Assembly: GCA_025463055.1 (NCBI GenBank)
Contig: JAOAPV010000040.1
Coordinates: 15,091-79,090 of the forward strand
Reading direction: 5' to 3'
Length of the DNA stretch: 64,000 nt
DNA from: Candidatus Acidiferrum typicum
Lineage (GTDB): Bacteria; Acidobacteriota; Terriglobia; Acidiferrales; UBA7541
Positions 4,649-42,640 of the stretch are shown here, one piece after another. The notes below the pieces were generated by a model. The model was not told the origin of the DNA, searched no databases, and saw nothing but the letters and a program-made list of their open reading frames with translations. The position numbers and the translations under genes are program-made. Numbering within the stretch: the first letter of the stretch is position 1; each line of letters starts with the position of its first letter.

Positions 4649-4879
4649 ATGGATAAAAGTCGCCGTTATGACATCGTTAGAAGGGAAAGCGAGAAAGCTG
4701 CGTTCTGGTTGGAAGGTGCGCCGGAACTAAGCGCCGCAAAAACGCGCGTGGAGGAGCTTCTTTCGTTTTGGCCCGGCGAATATCAGATCTTCGACTTGGA
4801 AACCAAGGAGGCCGTCCTCACAACGTCAGCCCTCTGCGCGGTACCGGGCGCGATGCCCGTCAGTAATTCCGCCGAATAG
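4649..4879 (+). CDS. small hypothetical protein, paralog 2 of a tandem pair
   Basis: 76 aa with a strong SD (AAGGAG, 6 nt upstream). Segment RYDIVRRESEKAAFWLEGAPELSAAKTRVEELLSFWPGEYQIFDLET parallels paralog 1 in the pattern YDI..R..W.E..L..AK.R..EL...PG.Y.IF. Confidence 0.6.
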   Translation: MDKSRRYDIVRRESEKAAFWLEGAPELSAAKTRVEELLSFWPGEYQIFDLETKEAVLTTSALCAVPGAMPVSNSAE

Positions 4880-5024
4880 CTAATCCTGCTAACTTGCCCT
4901 GTCCCTACAAGAGGGCTCGCAGCATCCCGCTGGCCTACGTGGTTCGATCGTCGGCTCGTCGGCTCCCGGGGTACGATTAGAGCAACCAAGAGGTCCCCTT
5001 GTCCGTCTAAGCTGCTACACTAGC

Positions 5025-5330
5025 GTGTGTAACCTTGGACAGATGCACTTCCTTAAGTTTATTTCCGGCAAACGCGCGTTAGCCATTTTAGGCTGCGTTG
5101 CGCTGTTGTATTTCGCCGGTGGAGGCGTTTTTGTCCACCATCATAGCGGCGCACCGGAAAGCGTTTGCCCTGTTTGCCAAGCGCTGCACATGCCGGCCTT
5201 GGCGGCTGCTGCTCTCGATCCGATCCCGCAAGCGCAGCAAGTAGCGTGGCATGCTGTTCTGCCCGATAATGTTTCGCCTTTAGACCCGTTCGCGCTGCAT
5301 CGCGCCTCTCGCGGTCCTCCTTCCGCGTAA
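5025..5330 (+). CDS. small membrane-anchored Cys/His protein (DUF2946-like?) upstream of a TonB-dependent receptor
   Basis: One N-terminal TM (ALAILGCVALLYFAGGGVF) followed by HHHSGAPESVCPVCQALH. Start may be MHFLKF at 5043. The family assignment is a guess based on architecture and position. Confidence 0.4.
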   Translation: MCNLGQMHFLKFISGKRALAILGCVALLYFAGGGVFVHHHSGAPESVCPVCQALHMPALAAAALDPIPQAQQVAWHAVLPDNVSPLDPFALHRASRGPPSA

Positions 5331-9367: not shown

Positions 9368-10980
9368 TTGATTTTGGACGCCGTGGCCAGGTAAGACTTG
9401 GCCTCGCTGAGCTCGGCGCGATCGGCTGACGGCGCTGAAGTCTCCATGAGCTTTGCGTAATAGGCGTTTGCAGCCGCAGCGTCGCCGGCCAATTGCGCGG
9501 CGTGCGCGGCTCCGTAGAGTGAATCGAATCGATGCGGGGAATTCTTCAGCGCGGCTTTGTATTCGGTGAGAGCTTCGGACGGGCGCTTGAGCTCGAGCAG
9601 CATGTCGGCGAGCATTTCGCGCGCGGGCATGGCCAGCGAGTCCACGCCGTCTGCATCTTCACGATCTGCCGCGGAGCGCAGCGTCTTCACCGCGTCGTCA
9701 GTTTTGCGTTCGGCCAACGCGACCCACCCTTCCACTTCCATTTGCTCGACACTCTTATCGGGAGTTTTGTTTCCGTGATGGTGTGATTTGCCCTGCTCCT
9801 CCGAGCTGATATCGACAAATTTTGCAAGGTTTTGGCGGGCGGCGCCGGCGTCACGCAAGTGGGCGGCGGCTATCGAGCGGACGCGGTAGGTTGATTCTTG
9901 CGACTCGCGCGGGACTTGCGGAATGGCCAACGCGGCGGCTTCTTTCCAACGGTGCGATTCGAATGCGTTGCGTGCAGCGAACCACGCTTGATGCTCGGCA
10001 ATCGATTCGTCGTCCGCGCCGGGCACATTCTCCAACTCTTTCACCATCTCGCGGGCCTTGGATTCTTGTCCACTTTGCAGGTAGGAATAATTCAGGAAGT
10101 CGAGGGCGTGGAATTGGTAGTGCGGCGCGGAGCGGTGTTCGTGGGTAGCTTTGGCGGCGGACGCAGAGGCGGCGATATTCGATGATATGGATTCTTGCCA
10201 CAGACCCAGGCGGACAAAAATGTGTGAGGGCATGTGCAGCGCGTGAGAAGAATCTGGAGCGATTTTGGAGTAGGCGCGAGCTGCTTCGAGCCCCTGTGGG
10301 GCAAATTCCGGCGTATCCGTCGCATGGATTAGGTAATGCGCGGGACCCGGATTATTCGGCGCCTTGCGGCACAGAGGCTCGAGGATAGCGATGGCGGCTA
10401 TGCGGTTTGGTTGCGCGTCGACCTCTTGCTGCTCTGCCAACGCGACGAGTGATAGCGCATAAAATGCCGCGGCATTCACATCATCGGCGTGTTTCTTGTG
10501 CAATTCCGCGAGAGCTGTGGAGTACGCTTGGACACGTTGTGTCTCGCTCAGTTTTGAATCTGCGAGGTAAAACGCCGCGGCTGCGGCGATGTAGCCGCGT
10601 TCGCGTTCAGTGGATGCGCCTGCCGCTTGGGCGTGCTGAATCTCCTCCGCACCATGTTTCAGCGACCTCTCCGAGGGAAATTCCCAGAGCTGCTCGTAAT
10701 GCGTCATGGCCTTGCCCCAATACGCGAGCGCGCACTTCGGATCGCGCTTGGCGGCTTCGCTGAAGCTTTGGTCAGCTTGCTTGTACTGAAACGAATGCAA
10801 GAGGGCGACACCGGTTTCCATGGAGGGCTGCGCTTCGGGGCCGCAGCTCGTGGGGAAATTGACCTGGCCTAGCCGTGGCGGAGGCGCCGCTACCTGGGAG
10901 CGTACAAGATTCGGAGCCGGGGTCCCCAGGCAAAGAAGGAAGGAAAGCAGGCCCACAATCAAGGGTGTGATACGCAACAT
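9364..10980 (-). CDS. secreted TPR-repeat protein
   Basis: 538 aa with a signal peptide and repeated A/Y/L-rich helical pairs (e.g. ALAYWGKAM, AAFYLADS, ANAYYAKLME). Translationally coupled to the downstream OMP gene. Confidence 0.65.
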   Translation of the reverse strand: MLRITPLIVGLLSFLLCLGTPAPNLVRSQVAAPPPRLGQVNFPTSCGPEAQPSMETGVALLHSFQYKQADQSFSEAAKRDPKCALAYWGKAMTHYEQLWEFPSERSLKHGAEEIQHAQAAGASTERERGYIAAAAAFYLADSKLSETQRVQAYSTALAELHKKHADDVNAAAFYALSLVALAEQQEVDAQPNRIAAIAILEPLCRKAPNNPGPAHYLIHATDTPEFAPQGLEAARAYSKIAPDSSHALHMPSHIFVRLGLWQESISSNIAASASAAKATHEHRSAPHYQFHALDFLNYSYLQSGQESKAREMVKELENVPGADDESIAEHQAWFAARNAFESHRWKEAAALAIPQVPRESQESTYRVRSIAAAHLRDAGAARQNLAKFVDISSEEQGKSHHHGNKTPDKSVEQMEVEGWVALAERKTDDAVKTLRSAADREDADGVDSLAMPAREMLADMLLELKRPSEALTEYKAALKNSPHRFDSLYGAAHAAQLAGDAAAANAYYAKLMETSAPSADRAELSEAKSYLATASKIK

Positions 10981-37943: not shown

Positions 37944-38052
37944 AGTGGCCGGGCTTCAGGCCGGCTCCCGAGCGAAAGCGAGGGATCTTAGCCGTCACGC
38001 CGTACGTAGCGGCGGTCTTCAGACCGGCGCCCGAGCAAAGCGAGGTCTCTTG
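37944..38052. repeat. two tandem REP-like units (CCGG-N-CTTCAG-N-CCGG hairpin plus CCCGAGC[GA]AAGCGAGG box)
   Basis: Unit 1: GCCGGGCTTCAGGCCGGCTCCCGAGCGAAAGCGAGGGATCT. Unit 2: GGCGGTCTTCAGACCGGCGCCCGAGCAAAGCGAGGTCTCT. Confidence 0.8.
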
Positions 38053-38120
38053 CCGTTTCTCTCTTCGTCCTCCCCATCCCCTTGCCTTCCCCCCTCCCAT
38101 CCGCTAAAACAAACTCCTCC

Positions 38121-38573
38121 ATGCCCTTCGACCCCGAACTCGTAGAAGCCCAATTAGCTCTCAACCGCATCGGCACTACGGACATGCCCAAACTCGCCTG
38201 GGACGCTCTCGAAGCCGGCCTCGACGGCCCCGCCACACGCCGCCTAGCCGCCCTGCATTTCCCAACGTTCTTTCAAGTGCGCGAAATTCTACCCAAGGTC
38301 TTGGACGAATGGCATCTGAAGCAAATTCCGAAGGCAGACGCAGCCCTGCGCCTCGCAAAGCGCCGCGCCCGCGAAATCCTGCAAAGCAACGAAGATCCGC
38401 TAAAGCACGCCAACGACTTTTTTCATTTGTGGGTAGAAGCGGACTTCTGCAAGGAACTCTCAAACTACGGAGAATTGGACGAAGAGGTCTACCGCGTCCG
38501 CCATTCCGGCCAAACCGACAACCAAATCCGCCCTTGGATCCTCGAAAAACTAAAAGCCCTAGCCGCCGTTTGA
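38121..38573 (+). CDS. hypothetical protein
   Basis: ATG 38121 (MPFDPELVEAQLALNRIG...). High-GC helical protein with no family recognised. Confidence 0.5.
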   Translation: MPFDPELVEAQLALNRIGTTDMPKLAWDALEAGLDGPATRRLAALHFPTFFQVREILPKVLDEWHLKQIPKADAALRLAKRRAREILQSNEDPLKHANDFFHLWVEADFCKELSNYGELDEEVYRVRHSGQTDNQIRPWILEKLKALAAV

Positions 38574-38758
38574 GGCAGGGTTACCCGGTCGTGGATGAGC
38601 TTCATCCGCCTGCGGAGTTGAGCTTCCCCTTAGCTTGTCATGTGGCCGAGCCCCGGGACCCCTGAGCGAGCCTTCCGCCCAAGGTTTCGTTGAGGCAACC
38701 GGCCCCAATTTGTTTTGTCCGGATTTAGATTGTTGATGTAAGTTCGTCCGAGAAAATA

Positions 38759-39211
38759 ATGGGCACCCGCCAAAAAGATCTGAACTTCTATACGCTAGGC
38801 TATCAACTGCATTCACCTATGACTCTTGTCCGCCTCCTAAAGGCGCAAAGGATCAGCGTCTTGGTGGACGTCCGTCAGAATCCGATCAGCAGGAAGCGCG
38901 GATTCTCAAAAAATCACTTGGAAAAAAGCGCGCGGCTTTCAGGGATAGACTACTTTCACGCTCCGCAGCTCGGAACCCCTCCCGCTATAAGGAAGCACTA
39001 CGCAAGTGGCGGCAACATTCAGGATGTATTGGAAGCCTACGAGAAACACTTACGCAGTTGTAGGCAACATCTCCGTTCTTTGTTAGAAGCAGTGACATCG
39101 CGAAGGTTTTGTTTACTATGTCTAGAAAGTGACTATACTTCCTGTCACCGTTCCATTATTGCAAAAGTACTTGCGGAGATGACAGGATGGCAGCCAATCC
39201 ACCTGAGATAG
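38759..39211 (+). CDS. DUF488-domain protein (island gene 1)
   Basis: 150 aa. FYTLGY....L..LLKAQRISVLVDVRQNPISRKRGFSKNHLEKSARLSGIDYFHAPQLG...RFCLLCLESDYTSCHRSIIA follows the DUF488 pattern (TiGhs..F..lL....I..lvDvR..P.S....f....L......gi.Y.....LG; C-terminal C.E......CHR). Confidence 0.75.
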   Translation: MGTRQKDLNFYTLGYQLHSPMTLVRLLKAQRISVLVDVRQNPISRKRGFSKNHLEKSARLSGIDYFHAPQLGTPPAIRKHYASGGNIQDVLEAYEKHLRSCRQHLRSLLEAVTSRRFCLLCLESDYTSCHRSIIAKVLAEMTGWQPIHLR

Positions 39212-39978
39212 GCTGGCAAGAAAAGACCGCACTCATTATTGGCCGGGCCTCCCCCGAGCCCAGTAAAACGCACGTCGAGACTGTTTGTACAGGCGGAATC
39301 ACAGAAAACGGGGAAGTGCTAAGGCTCTATCCGATTCCGCTGCGCTATCTGGAAAGAGAAAAGCGCTACAAACTGTGGACGTGGGCAAAATTCGACGTCC
39401 AGAAAAATCCGTCAGACAAACGAAAGGAGAGCTATAGAGTTCGTGACGACTCAATCCGTGTGCTGGCGGAAATAGAAAATCCTGCAGAGAAATTCTCGAT
39501 GCTGGAAAAGGCCATTTTCAAAGACAGAGAGACGCTAGACGAGCAATATCATAAGGACTGGACGAGCATCGGTGTGATTGAGATCGAATTCCTGGACTTT
39601 TATGTGGAGACTAGAGAAAAGGATTGGGAGCGGGACAAACCTTATATCAGGCAGTTCCTCCTGTACACCGAACGCAAAGCCTTAGAGCAGCTACCATTTG
39701 AAATGAGGTTGAAGTTCCGATGTAAAAACAATCCAAGCTGCAAAACTCACGATTCCTCACTCATCGGGTGGCAGTACATGGAGGCGTTTCGCAAATTCAG
39801 GCAAAAGTACGGTTCCGGCGATGGGGGCTTCATGGCTCTCGACCAGAAATTACGGTCATTTTTCAATGATCCGAACAAGAGAGCATTTGTCCTGATGGGA
39901 ACCCACTTTAAGTATGGCTCGTGGATGGTCGCGGAAATCTACTTCTTTGATAAAAATCTTCCTCGAAGGCTATTTTGA
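39187..39978 (+). CDS. uncharacterised 263-aa protein (island gene 2)
   Basis: ATG overlaps the DUF488 gene by 25 nt. Features: ..VETVCTGGITENGEVLRLYPIPLRYL.., the Cys/His cluster FRCKNNPSCKTHD, and a C-terminal ..GTHFKYGSWMVAEIYFF. No family recognised. Confidence 0.65.
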   Translation: MAANPPEIGWQEKTALIIGRASPEPSKTHVETVCTGGITENGEVLRLYPIPLRYLEREKRYKLWTWAKFDVQKNPSDKRKESYRVRDDSIRVLAEIENPAEKFSMLEKAIFKDRETLDEQYHKDWTSIGVIEIEFLDFYVETREKDWERDKPYIRQFLLYTERKALEQLPFEMRLKFRCKNNPSCKTHDSSLIGWQYMEAFRKFRQKYGSGDGGFMALDQKLRSFFNDPNKRAFVLMGTHFKYGSWMVAEIYFFDKNLPRRLF

Positions 39979-40064
39979 CAAGATAGAACAGCGCTGATGG
40001 CAAACGTCAGAACTCGCCTACTCCTTTTTCTCAGCTCCTATTTTCCCTGTGTCTTATTTTCTTC

Positions 40065-40514
40065 GTGCTGTTTGTCACGACGCATCGTCGACTTGCGACC
40101 ATCGCGCTTGCGGTCGGCGTTCTGGGCTTGGTTGGTTTGGCCGTTTACCTACGCTCAGTCAATCGGCTGGAACCTATCCTAGTGAAGGCATCTCTTGTCG
40201 AGCGTCACGATGCCGAAGCCATGGCATACATCGTCACCTACGTAATTCCCTTTCTGTCTATTCCGTTCAATGGATTACAACAAGGGATTGCCCAGTCTAT
40301 TTTTTTTGTTGTCCTTGGCATTCTCTACGTTAACTCCAACATGATTCACATCAATCCGATGCTGAACTTGGCGGGATACCACTTGTATGGCGTCACCCTC
40401 GAAGACGGCGGAACCCATTCCTTAATCGCGAGGCATCGGATTGTGCGCGGCCAACAAATCCGGGCAATAAAGCTGGCGGACGATATTCTCCTGGAGAAGG
40501 GCGATGAAAACTAA
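40065..40514 (+). CDS. kwaA: small multi-TM protein, KwaA-like by position (island gene 3)
   Basis: GTG start. TM segments: LATIALAVGVLGLVGLAVYL, AMAYIVTYVIPFLSI, IAQSIFFVVLGILYV. Soluble tail. Its 3' end overlaps the DUF4868-like gene by 11 nt. The N-terminus is uncertain (see findings). Confidence 0.5.
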   Translation: MLFVTTHRRLATIALAVGVLGLVGLAVYLRSVNRLEPILVKASLVERHDAEAMAYIVTYVIPFLSIPFNGLQQGIAQSIFFVVLGILYVNSNMIHINPMLNLAGYHLYGVTLEDGGTHSLIARHRIVRGQQIRAIKLADDILLEKGDEN

Positions 40515-41490
40515 GAAGTCGGCCCAGAAACAGCCGAAGGAGATTTTTGCCGAAATACTAGCTTCGGACCTAGACAAAAGTGCTTTGACAGTTTGTGTTG
40601 CATCAACGGGCAAAGCAGGTGTCGAGCCGAGTTTTCAAAAGCTCCAGTTGTCGACCGAACTTGCCGAAGAGTTTAGGTCCGTCGTGCAGTCAAGCCTAAC
40701 CAAGTATCTCGAGAAGTCGGCGGATGGCGATCTAAAGGTCTACCAATATGATGCTGGCAGTAAAGCTGATTCGCACGAAATCGAATATCTCGACCTAACA
40801 AAGCATGACGAAATCGGCAAACAATTTGCTCCCCTTTCCTCGCTAGCAGACGTCCTCCTCTTTACGGCTCAAGATGAGTTTGTTTCAGGGCTCCGCTTCT
40901 ACGTAATTATCGTGCAGCCCCAGCAAGGTTCCCCTATTTACTGCTTCCGTTCGTACACACCCAAAAAAAAATTGCGACGGTCGCCTCTTTTCGCAGCAAT
41001 CTTTGAAGATGGCACGTTTGATCGAATAGCGGAGCCCACCTTCCTGTTCGATAACCGAATCCATTGCATGGCTCATGGCACGTTTATGTTTGTCTTCAAC
41101 AAAGACAGCTTTCATAAGATCTTCCGTTTCTTTGATATGGTCCTAAAAACGGCTGAGAAAACACTCGAAAGTATAGGGAGTCGCGTTCCCATCGACAACT
41201 TTGAAGAATTCAGCGAGGCCTGCAAAGGACATTACCAGATGCAAGCAAAGCTGAAGAACATTGCAAATAAGCCCTATCTGAAGAATTTAACTATGGATGC
41301 GGTGAAAAAGGTCTTGGCCGAGTTGCCCCATCTGGGCGTTGAAATCATTATAAAAAACGGGGAGGAAATGCTCGTTTTCAACCCTAAGGATAAATGGGCT
41401 TTCCTCAGGCTCTTGGATGACGACTACCTCAAATCCTTAATGACCGGTGAGAACTATGAAGTCTCTGGTAAACGACCATACGAAGCTTAG
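40504..41490 (+). CDS. kwaB: DUF4868-like protein, candidate Kiwa KwaB (island gene 4)
   Basis: 328 aa. Its length and sequence flow are as I recall for DUF4868/KwaB: central ..GLRFYVIIVQPQQGSPIYCFRSY.., ..FLFDNRIHCMAHGTFMFVFNKDSFHKIF.., C-terminal ..LRLLDDDYLKSLMTGENYEV. This is recognition from memory, not a profile search. Confidence 0.6.
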   Translation: MKTKKSAQKQPKEIFAEILASDLDKSALTVCVASTGKAGVEPSFQKLQLSTELAEEFRSVVQSSLTKYLEKSADGDLKVYQYDAGSKADSHEIEYLDLTKHDEIGKQFAPLSSLADVLLFTAQDEFVSGLRFYVIIVQPQQGSPIYCFRSYTPKKKLRRSPLFAAIFEDGTFDRIAEPTFLFDNRIHCMAHGTFMFVFNKDSFHKIFRFFDMVLKTAEKTLESIGSRVPIDNFEEFSEACKGHYQMQAKLKNIANKPYLKNLTMDAVKKVLAELPHLGVEIIIKNGEEMLVFNPKDKWAFLRLLDDDYLKSLMTGENYEVSGKRPYEA

Positions 41491-41539
41491 GCAGGAAAGA
41501 GCCGACCAAAGGACGAGCGATGCGGGCCGGGAGGGCACA

Positions 41540-41857
41540 ATGCTGGATGGGGCGTTGACAGCCGAATTTGACCAAGCGATGTTCAGCATCTATCAGAGGG
41601 CCCTGCTGGAAGCGAACTATAAGGCCACGCGCTTTCTACATATGCTGCACGAACATGGCGGTCTTCAGACAGCAATAATCCTGATACGTTCGCCCAATAT
41701 CTCGGAGGGCTACGCTGCACTCTGGGAGCGCCGACGACTGGACCTAACCGTGGAAGCCGTCATTTACGACAACCCCAAGTGGCATCAGTTATTTGACAAG
41801 AACGACCTCGCAATCTGCGCCAAGCGGCTCAAGGCGTATGATTACCCCGGTGCTTGA
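41540..41857 (+). CDS. small helical hypothetical protein (island gene 5)
   Basis: ATG 41540 with GGGAGGG SD. MLDGALTAEFDQAMFSIYQRALLEANYKATRFLHMLHEHGGLQTA...RLDLTVEAVI... An upstream ATG at 41447/41456 overlapping kwaB is an alternative start. Confidence 0.5.
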   Translation: MLDGALTAEFDQAMFSIYQRALLEANYKATRFLHMLHEHGGLQTAIILIRSPNISEGYAALWERRRLDLTVEAVIYDNPKWHQLFDKNDLAICAKRLKAYDYPGA

Positions 41858-41865
41858 TTTCTCAC

Positions 41866-41894
41866 TTGACAAATAGTAACGGATGCGGTAATCT
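41866..41894 (+). promoter_or_regulatory. consensus-like promoter at the right edge of the island
   Basis: TTGACA (41866-71), a 17-nt spacer, then TAATCT (41889-94). It faces a ~750-bp non-coding stretch before the next gene. Confidence 0.4.
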
Positions 41895-41981
41895 TTAACT
41901 TAGGTTCTGCTGACAGTGTCCCCGTTTCGTCCCTTCTTCTTTCAGCCACCCGTACTGCACCCCGACAACGATCGATTTTTT

Positions 41982-42037
41982 ACTCCTTTGTTTTCAATAT
42001 CTTCTGAGTTGCTATTTTCGCAACTCCTTTGTTTTCA
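41982..42037. repeat. 15-bp direct repeat ACTCCTTTGTTTTCA x2 (41-bp period), member of a dispersed intergenic motif
   Basis: Copies at 41982-96 and 42023-37. A related AGTCCTTTGTTTTGA lies at 8276-8290 in another intergenic region. Confidence 0.8.
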
Positions 42038-42640
42038 CAACCATCTGCGTTGCCCCCTAGTGTGCGCGCACGCTCAGCGAGTATCGACCCGTAACCCGCT
42101 AAGTCCTTTACCTCTTACTACATCCCTGCAAACCCAGCAGCTTCATGCGATTACGCACTCTTTTGCACAACGGCACCGAGCTATCCCTCCCGTTTTCAAT
42201 CGGTTCCGCACTCTTTCTATCGCAACAGGGGTGTACCCCCCCCCAGGGCGACCACTGGCTTACCAGTTTTCGTTTCCGCGTCAGAACGAGACGTTCAGGC
42301 ATTCAAGCACTCAGCATTCCGACTCTTCCCGATCCGAAGGAGGTGACCGAAACAACACAAAGCCGCTTGCTACAGCAAACACCTGTGGCGCTCTACACTT
42401 TTCAGGTTATCGAGTACTAGTCGCCTGCCTGCTAGAGTGCCTCATCCTCGTTGCGACCCGCAGCATCTAAGGACATGCGGACGCCGCCTGGATGAGATTA
42501 CGGGGTGTTTTTCACAACCCAGCGGCTTGATTCTCCTGTTCCCGGCGCCAGAGAAATCGTACCTGCTGTTTCCCGCGCCACTTCCTCTGCAAGAGCCCTT
42601 GGGTAGTCACCACGAAGTCTCCCCTCCCAAGGAGCTTGCA

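Follow-up and report, generated by a model that had tools for sequence, protein, structure and literature searches.

What do two overlapping genes do in a low-GC island of an acidobacterial genome, when one encodes the domain DUF488 and the other a protein that matches no Pfam family? The pair lies in a stretch of 64,000 nucleotides (nt) from Candidatus Acidiferrum typicum (GenBank assembly GCA_025463055.1, contig JAOAPV010000040.1, positions 15,091 to 79,090 of the forward strand), which we call the window and whose own positions are used below. A preliminary description, made from the sequence, had proposed the pair as an unrecognised module with a possible role in nucleic-acid-directed or defence activity. 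We found that the pair is a new instance of PDC-M19, a catalogued, experimentally uncharacterised candidate defence system, and comparison of loci shows that DUF488 and its partner (hereafter M19B) form a single conserved functional unit, which occurs in bacteria and archaea as well as on plasmids and phages. Structural modelling further assigns M19B with confidence, at the level of the fold, to the tandem OB-fold proteins. The two genes and their junction are as follows.

38759..39211, + strand: gene 1, the DUF488 gene (PDC-M19A), an open reading frame (ORF) with ATG start, 150 amino acids (aa), short form without N-terminal extension; identified by Pfam, PADLOC and an AlphaFold2 model (predicted local distance difference test, pLDDT, 93.2)
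39187..39211, + strand: overlap of the two genes, 25 nt; within the DUF488 gene, a GGAG precedes the M19B ATG by 11 nt
39187..39978, + strand: gene 2, the M19B gene (PDC-M19B), ORF with ATG start, 263 aa; the protein has a CCCH cluster and a predicted tandem OB fold; identified by PADLOC, AlphaFold2 and Foldseek

Both ORFs and their 25-nt overlap had been read correctly in the preliminary description, as had the nature of the first ORF, which matches the Pfam DUF488 model (PF04343) at 9.5e-27 (94.5 bits against a cut-off of 22.2). The identical overlap recurs in five other loci (our numbers L024, L027, L028, L032 and L033), in which the DUF488 gene ends at position 10025 and the M19B gene starts at 10001. 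Because these relatives are 55–75% identical, the overlap is conserved and does not represent a chance ORF artefact. Both start codons are also supported, since the homologs have the same lengths (263 aa for M19B and 150 aa in many DUF488 partners). Upstream, a promoter candidate at 38733–38760 has a −10 hexamer that overlaps the DUF488 start codon, and we treated it as a consensus match only.

The novelty of the module did not survive comparison with the PADLOC models, because both components match those of PDC-M19. The protein of gene 1 matches PDC-M19A (PDLC04505, 1.5e-32; PDLC04504, 2.1e-21), and M19B matches PDC-M19B (PDLC04508, 3.5e-34, residues 13–243; PDLC04507, 6.4e-32). The genes are adjacent on the + strand in the order A>>B, as in the catalogued cassette; at the level of membership, the window pair is thus the same two-gene cassette, with no difference. 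The earlier statement that the 263-aa protein belongs to no nameable family accordingly holds for Pfam and NCBIfam, in which M19B has no match (Pfam SSB and RPA included), but not for PADLOC. In the source of the models, PDC-M19 is listed as CAS_00089, FAM_02799>>FAM_02993, with the remark "Assign as candidate PDC-M19" and the figure 174, apparently an occurrence count (Payne et al. 2024, bioRxiv 10.1101/2024.01.29.577857, supplement); we mapped FAM_02799 to A and FAM_02993 to B by assumption. The models were obtained by clustering genes embedded in BREX, DISARM and type I restriction-modification (RM) loci into cassettes, and the 145 curated "phage defence candidate" (PDC) systems are called untested by their authors (bioRxiv 10.1101/2024.01.29.577857). 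The accessible parts of that source give PDC-M19 a name, without a fold, mechanism or test result, and the dual-OB/CCCH assignment, archaeal ParB fusions and prophage placement described below are absent from those parts of its text and supplements. Elsewhere, one preprint describes YeaO of E. coli as DUF488-like and places the domain near prophages and defence islands, and adds nothing further; a mention of "DUF488" in a review of SGNH hydrolases was a false text match, the domain there being DUF4886.

Pairing and genomic contexts of DUF488 and M19B

If the two proteins function together, as the preliminary description had suggested, their genes should stay together. We pooled loci from reference genomes, public assemblies, plasmids, phages and IMG/VR, applied profiles of the two proteins to the whole set, and left one locus (L010) out of the count since its contig was cut. 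DUF488 adjoins M19B in 41 of the 42 distinct evaluable loci, in three arrangements. The window shows the order DUF488>M19B with the 25-nt overlap, as do close relatives among the Acidobacteriota, Verrucomicrobiia and Ignavibacteria, and the same order also occurs in a metagenome-assembled genome (MAG) of Gemmatimonadales, a Sulfitobacter plasmid and one phage contig. The order is M19B>DUF488 in Planctomycetota, Calothrix and a second phage contig. The genes converge in five lineages, namely an Armatimonadetes MAG, plasmids of Pseudomonas, Rhizobium and Streptomyces, and Gordonia phages.

The functional pair is further supported by a natural fusion, the 409-aa protein P0332, in which DUF488 occupies residues 14–131 and M19B residues 152–390. 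DUF488 is also fused to DNA-binding domains. On archaeal plasmids, the neighbours of M19B homologs annotated "ParB/RepB/Spo0J" consist of ParB_N, HTH_ParB and DUF488 (DUF488 match 2.4e-21 in Saccharolobus and 5.5e-12 in Haloquadratum), and in Streptomyces the DUF488 protein next to the M19B homolog carries an Xre-type helix-turn-helix (HTH) domain. An archaeal ParB-CTPase-DUF488-HTH fusion has been reported to bind CTP (bioRxiv 10.1101/2025.10.10.680097). Taken together, the comparison of these sequences shows the pair to travel as mobile accessory cargo.

Several loci contain additional genes. In the Sulfolobales plasmids, a conserved protein of 163 or 168 aa is encoded directly after the M19B-like gene (L043, 4852–5343; L037, 5840–6346), perhaps as an archaeal third component. 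Its assignment as a PD-(D/E)xK nuclease was rejected as a motif-level guess, because it relied on the resemblance of an "EID...FEAK" pattern in the protein to such nucleases and Pfam gave no significant match. A second, divergent DUF488 paralogue (31% identical, called at 231 aa) lies just upstream of DUF488-M19B and right after an isc Fe-S operon in a Terriglobia lineage (L003, 4300–4746; L030, 8732–9427). In an Acidobacteriota lineage (L024, 7181–10025), the DUF488 gene encodes 301 aa with an unannotated N-terminal extension of ~150 aa, and is preceded on the same strand by genes for a Trypsin_2-like protein (288 aa) and a 350-aa protein without annotation; this set may be a larger variant of the cassette.

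An M19B homolog was found in five temperate CZ1 phages of Gordonia terrae (Nymphadora, BatStarr, Eviarto, TimTam and Herod), and it stands beside the repressor gene 44 in all seven Gordonia CZ1 records. Nymphadora (NC_031061, L035) is the one CZ1 genome examined in detail. Its gp43 is the M19B homolog (hhalign E 6.6e-18) and starts at the stop codon of the immunity repressor gene gp44, whereas gp42 (4846–5298, minus strand) is DUF488 (hhalign probability 99.85%, E 1.1e-30); the annotation of gp42 as "HipA toxin, toxin-antitoxin system?" is therefore misleading. The genes of gp43 and gp42 converge and an integrase gene is nearby, so that the pair lies between immunity repressor and integrase. 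By analogy, this location corresponds to the classic position of prophage-expressed exclusion genes: the exclusion cassettes gp43/44 of CarolAnn and gp30/31 of Sbash show the same placement, with two genes between repressor and integrase (PMC6426606). The proteins of these cassettes are unrelated to the pair. CarolAnn gp43/44 are a proposed membrane ion channel and its cytoplasmic partner, and Nymphadora was used in that study only as a challenge phage (PMC6426606). In two IMG/VR phage contigs, the pair is inserted among tail genes.

Conjugative plasmids account for 11 of the 25 plasmid matches. On the Sulfitobacter plasmid, the pair lies among ssb, two radC genes, DUF932 and DUF6878, a set resembling a leading region, and on Rhizobium pRL8 its surroundings include DUF1419, a primase-like gene of the DUF3991-toprim type and the gene of a large helicase.

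Among chromosomal loci, the clearest defence context is a DISARM core (L011) in which DrmA, DrmB, DrmC, M19B, DUF488 and a DEDDh exonuclease are encoded in this order on one strand; an earlier attribution of the DISARM matches of our bulk scan to L012 and several large neighbours was wrong. A second example is the locus of an M19B that is 74% identical to that of the window (L049). UvrD, SLFN/AlbA_2-TPR and PDDEXK genes lie upstream of the pair, and DUF499, DUF1156 methyltransferase and SNF2/NOV_C genes downstream, forming a dense defence island. Other pairs are flanked by IS1 and IS1595 transposases and an N6/N4 methyltransferase (L033), lie in a conjugative region beside TraG and TrbC (L026), or have as neighbours a transposase and an RHS toxin (L024), a resolvase and DprA (L047), or a GIY-YIG and an HD-type gene (L032). 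The bulk PADLOC scan, taken over all 196 neighbouring ORFs together, also returned type II RM, reverse-transcriptase, Cas1 and PDC-S15 matches. The distribution is sporadic: a pattern-limited scan of one genome from each of 185,579 species yielded 23 loci.

Predicted folds and conserved residues of the two proteins

The predicted domains and motifs of the two proteins map to the window as follows.

39119..39151, + strand: putative active-site loop of DUF488, C121-L-E123-x5-C129-H130-R131, with C121, E123, C129, H130 and R131 invariant in 38 homologs
39214..39471, + strand: predicted OB domain 1 of M19B, residues ~10–95, with AlphaFold2 strands 11–21, 32–38, 44–50, 65–73 and 82–95
39568..39951, + strand: predicted OB domain 2 of M19B, residues ~128–255, with a long helical insert at 195–226
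39721..39750, + strand: C179-x5-C185-x2-H188 hairpin of M19B, with C34 a putative CCCH zinc site

M19B belongs to a large family of uniform architecture. None of 314 close homologs contains a Pfam domain, nearly all of the 120 relatives listed are 263 aa long, and the mean column identity of the close-group alignment is 55%. In an exhaustive profile search, the representatives of 1,719 clusters (50% identity) matched at E <= 1e-3, and 980 of these also at E <= 1e-10; with few exceptions they are stand-alone proteins, 255–290 aa in length.

We modelled M19B with AlphaFold2 from 35 sequences (pLDDT 87.3; predicted template modelling score 0.86). The model consists of two beta-barrel units, at residues ~10–95 and 128–255, linked by two helices. 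Its predicted secondary structure agrees with the OB barrel of five strands in which a helix separates strands 3 and 4. When it was compared with the PDB using Foldseek, all 13 matches at E <= 1e-3 were OB-fold proteins that bind single-stranded DNA (ssDNA), including LEF-3 with ssDNA (3e-5), CTC1 of the CST complex, Oxytricha TEBP-alpha with ssDNA, Teb1 and Pyrococcus RPA (E 3e-5 to 9e-4). The alignments to two-OB proteins span the whole length of M19B (~280–300 columns, probability 0.99–1.0), and single domains match RecO-N, the Rim1 SSB (TMt 0.63) and PriB. In the viral Foldseek library, eleven LEF-3 proteins were followed by single-domain matches, including a phage ssDNA-binding protein. 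The global template modelling (TM) scores against the two-OB proteins are low (0.22–0.38), as is expected when two domains differ in relative orientation, and a PDB profile search with M19B gave no match at E up to 10. Given the low TM scores and the lack of sequence similarity to solved structures, we claim OB membership at the level of the fold only. The beta-rich N-terminal segment pointed out in the preliminary description, VETVCTGGITENGEVLRLYPIPLRYL, corresponds to residues 30–55 of this predicted tandem OB fold.

The two-OB architecture is common to LEF-3, TEBP-alpha/Pot1, CTC1, RPA and the predicted M19B. Unlike these multi-OB ssDNA binders, to which it has no sequence similarity, M19B is paired with an enzyme, belongs to a non-essential accessory gene pair, and conserves the acidic and polar residues E31, D77, E81, S82 and Q156. 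We also compared M19B with the Pfam family DuOB (PF22557, Dual OB-containing domain). The M19B of the window had no match at E up to 0.1. Weak matches below the gathering threshold of 27 bits came from 3 of 53 diverse family members (best E 1.3e-4) and from a Saccharolobus homolog (20.4 bits). Judged from these profiles, M19B is at most a remote relative of DuOB, and the matches may be taken as weak independent support for a dual-OB fold. Parts of the DUF488/dual-OB idea probably exist in the literature of the Aravind laboratory; the DuOB entry hints that the dual-OB partner may have been described by Burroughs and Aravind (2023) or in a sister study.

The C-x5-C-x2-H cluster noted earlier, FRCKNNPSCKTHD, comprises residues 177–189 and is conserved throughout the family together with Cys34. 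C179-x5-C185-x2-H188 is invariant in the close group, and 114 of 142 distant members retain the full CCCH pattern of C34, C179, C185 and H188. This tetrad is probably a zinc site that joins the two OB domains. Cys/His metal clusters tied to an OB domain are known from DBD-C of RPA70 and from archaeal RPA, which M19B would resemble in this respect. Over the 142 distant members, P23, S26, E31, R46, P49, R53, D77, R79, E81, S82, S127, Q156 and W195 are near-invariant, and OB domain 1 has most of the conserved residues (E31, C34, R46, P49, R53, D77, R79, E81 and S82). In the model, they appear to lie mostly on strands 2 and 3 and the L45 loop, the usual ligand face of OB domains. M19B has an isoelectric point (pI) of 9.0 and 14% aromatic residues, and its C-terminus is aromatic-rich, as had been described. 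At the very C-terminus, M19B (39970–39975) shares with many members of its family a final ...LF (RLF, TLF or SLF), which follows a tail modelled with low confidence. By analogy with the C-terminal tip of bacterial SSB, this end may be a partner-docking peptide, although the M19B tail is not acidic.

The DUF488 protein of the window passes the Pfam model DUF488-N3a (PF22751; 33.3 bits, cut-off 27) and not DUF488-N3i (20.7 bits, cut-off 27). Sixteen positions are invariant over the 38 homologs, among them G14, Y15, R39, S44, K46, G48, F49, Y65, G72, P74, C121, E123, C129, H130 and R131. The AlphaFold2 model is a small alpha/beta sandwich in which C121-x-E123-x5-C129-H130-R131 forms the loop joining strand 117–121 to helix 130–142, and the C-x-E...CHR motif is also present in the DUF488 partners of phages, archaea and plasmids. 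Together with a pI of 10.0, the model suggests a small basic Rossmann-like enzyme whose Arg/Ser/Lys-rich pocket would suit phosphate groups.

Fold comparison of DUF488 gave weak matches. These include, at TM ~0.4–0.5, the Cys-phosphatases DUF442, VHR, KAP and Cdc14 and a plant glucan phosphatase, the best being DUF442 (3gxg, E 3.5e-3, TM 0.49), as well as lobes of tetrapyrrole/borosin-type methyltransferases and a diphthine-type methylase; a PDB sequence search returned noise only. At the position equivalent to the phosphatase P-loop, the DUF488 loop reads C121-L-E-S-D-Y-T-S-C-H-R131, that is, C-x9-R or C-H-R. The match to DUF488-N3a, described as the "active DUF488-N3 subclade", and the weak fold matches would agree with a superfamily in which Burroughs and Aravind (2023) reportedly united Cys-phosphatase and diphthine/tetrapyrrole-methylase-type folds; the window protein lacks C-x5-R. 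Those authors are also said to have predicted that DNA ends are processed by some clade members in systems of virus-host conflict. For the related DUF4326, the same group proposed a role in processing terminal phosphates on ADP-ribose derivatives (PMC9503650).

The low-GC island of the window

In the window, the pair forms the first part of a small island.

38600..42250, no strand (context only): low-GC island with DUF488-M19B, KwaA, KwaB and a 136-aa ORF, all + strand and tightly packed

The preliminary description had called this island foreign-looking and had recognised a Kiwa-like pair downstream of M19B. The GC content is 0.46–0.51 over ~38.6–42.2 kb compared with 0.58–0.63 in the flanks, and both Kiwa genes are confirmed; KwaA matches its PADLOC model at 9e-23 (NCBIfam 88.9 bits, below the cut-off of 100), and KwaB its Pfam model at 3.4e-21. 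A tblastn search of the other 33 loci found neither KwaA nor KwaB nor either of the two flanking unknown ORFs, and none of them occurs in the loci annotated later. Because KwaA and KwaB are absent from all other pair loci, their adjacency is no evidence of linkage. The earlier hint at nucleic acids and defence has circumstantial support: the fold matches to ssDNA binders, the ParB-HTH and Xre-HTH fusions, and the DISARM, defence-island and prophage contexts.

No mobility genes were found among the island ORFs, no convincing att-like direct repeats around the island, and no tRNA genes in the window. An exact 14-nt direct repeat, GGCGGTCTTCAGAC, at 38011–38024 and 41657–41670 roughly brackets the island; such a pair would be expected by chance ~0.08 times in 6.5 kb (a rough estimate), and is therefore not convincing as an att site. 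Imperfect direct repeats lie at the right edge (41982–42012/42023–42053, 84% identity; 42142–42163/42195–42216, 82%), and the first terminator-like hairpin of the island on the + strand is at 42006–42026.

The KwaA ORF (GTG at 40065) has ~24 N-terminal residues fewer than the PADLOC models. Upstream, in the region 39984–40070, its frame is open to ~39984 without a start codon, and an ATG in another frame at 39997, 19 nt after the M19B stop codon, begins a transmembrane-like peptide. The reading frames suggest a 1-nt frameshift close to the T-run at ~40024–40029, which would reflect an assembly error or a pseudogene. The 136-aa ORF (41447–41857) shares 44 nt with the end of KwaB. It matches nothing in Pfam, NCBIfam or PADLOC and is absent from all other pair loci; it could be a Kiwa accessory gene specific to this island or a small gene on its own. 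A 163-aa ORF of normal GC content (38082–38573), located immediately upstream of the island, has no family match and recurs in no other locus. We considered it as a detached N-terminal extension of the long DUF488 partners and found no similarity.

Proposed function and competing explanations

On the basis of the predicted folds and the contexts, we propose that the pair acts in anti-phage or anti-plasmid defence, a reading to which we give a rough probability of 0.45. M19B would recognise an invading replicon by binding its single-stranded nucleic acid or one of its DNA ends, and would deliver or activate the DUF488 enzyme at that terminus. DUF488 would then perform phosphate or sugar-phosphate chemistry on the terminus, altering it so that replication is blocked. 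In archaea, the same enzyme would be tethered to DNA via the fused ParB CTP-clamp and HTH domain; the ParB-HTH and Xre-HTH fusions are the reason why we infer that DUF488 works on or at DNA. It is possible, but in our judgment rather doubtful, that the proposal extends further and that the pair is an ancient conflict effector of bacteria, archaea and viruses, in which a zinc-braced, RPA-like reader and a Cys/His/Arg enzyme, ParB-clamp-loaded in archaea, covalently modify or demodify the terminus, for example by phosphotransfer, by removal of a 3' or 5' blocking group or by action on a protein-DNA or ADP-ribose-DNA adduct.

Several observations weigh against the proposed defence function. Our literature search found no paper mentioning PDC-M19 and none with an experiment on any DUF488 protein. 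The pairing has one true exception, Sulfolobus pSOG2, which carries an M19B-like gene without DUF488 on the whole 26-kb plasmid and has an integrase where the related pBEU9E1 has ParB-DUF488; the gene downstream was rejected as DUF488 (hhalign probability 0.5%). The frequent defence and mobile-element contexts of the pair are raw counts of loci. Four of ~13 annotated loci of the close group (L027, L028, L030 and L048) have housekeeping-like contexts. As for the enzyme, Foldseek gave no match of the DUF488 model below E 1e-3 (best E 2.7e-3, TM ~0.5), and the canonical phosphatase P-loop, C-x5-R(S/T), is absent. The conserved acids E31, D77 and E81 of OB domain 1 are unusual for a generic ssDNA binder, and the ligand could be other than ssDNA.

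Plasmid leading regions are rich in anti-defence genes, and the leading- or establishment-like contexts of the pair, a further point on this side, keep alive the opposite reading, in which the pair is a counter-defence or establishment factor. M19B would coat or cap the element's own ssDNA, incoming or replicating, and DUF488 would process its ends or remove a host-imposed modification, protecting plasmids and phages from host immunity, and the chromosomal copies would be remnants of such elements. The leading-region-like set of Sulfitobacter, the pRL8 neighbourhood, the TraG/TrbC region, the share of conjugative plasmids and the insertions in the tail-gene blocks of the two phage contigs are all in keeping with it. 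However, the models that catalogue the pair derive from genes embedded in BREX, DISARM or RM loci, chromosomal copies follow DrmABC on the same strand or lie in a defence island, and the Gordonia pair is placed with the repressor on the side of lysogenic expression, which is typical of prophage-encoded exclusion. Moreover, the window island lacks mobility genes, and defence systems are likewise common as plasmid cargo. We consequently regard counter-defence as unlikely. Two small, overlapping and translationally coupled genes with a patchy, mobile distribution also recall a toxin-antitoxin or addiction module, with DUF488 as a growth-arresting enzyme checked by the OB protein, or the reverse, that stabilises the DNA carrying it and affects phages through abortive infection. 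The Xre-type HTH, fused to DUF488 in Streptomyces only and of a kind found in many antitoxins and autoregulators, fits such a module, as does the guess of "toxin" by the phage annotators; the "HipA" label is, however, wrong because gp42 is DUF488. In five lineages the convergent arrangement uncouples the two genes in their expression, an unusual feature for a type II toxin-antitoxin system. The window proteins contain no HTH, ribbon-helix-helix or other DNA-binding antitoxin domain in Pfam; each exceeds typical antitoxins in size and, by a wide margin, in conservation. This explanation therefore appears quite improbable.

Little more can be said for a cellular DNA-repair or end-processing accessory without a role in conflict, with the OB protein as a sensor of ssDNA gaps or ends and DUF488 as the enzyme that cleans blocked termini, and we consider it very unlikely. 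Some loci do have housekeeping neighbours (the isc operon, PBP/AIRS/UvrC/Fpg and an Lhr helicase pair) and the M19B fold resembles RecO and RPA, but the sporadic distribution, the occurrence in archaea as well as bacteria and on mobile plasmid and phage genomes, and the low-GC island of the window argue against it, as does the lack of conserved linkage to any repair gene. Finally, the pair could be an accessory of the adjacent Kiwa genes, in a four- or five-gene Kiwa variant: all five genes, from DUF488 to the 136-aa ORF, lie on one strand with gaps of <= 86 nt and no terminator-like site before 42006. The absence of KwaA and KwaB from every other locus brings this explanation close to refutation.

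DUF488 is a widespread prokaryotic domain still without biochemistry. The present analysis turns PDC-M19 from a bare hidden Markov model label into a structural and comparative model open to test, which names a partner with the predicted fold of ssDNA binders, a putative metal site and candidate catalytic residues, and in which DNA is suggested as the target by the fusions to a ParB CTP-clamp and HTH domains. A tractable experimental system is offered by the temperate CZ1 phages of Gordonia terrae, with gp42 and gp43 in the lysogeny module. In the window itself, one small low-GC island stacks two unrelated defence-type cassettes, PDC-M19 and Kiwa. If the pair indeed acts on nucleic-acid ends, it would represent a new effector chemistry in prokaryotic immunity and would provide a function for DUF488.

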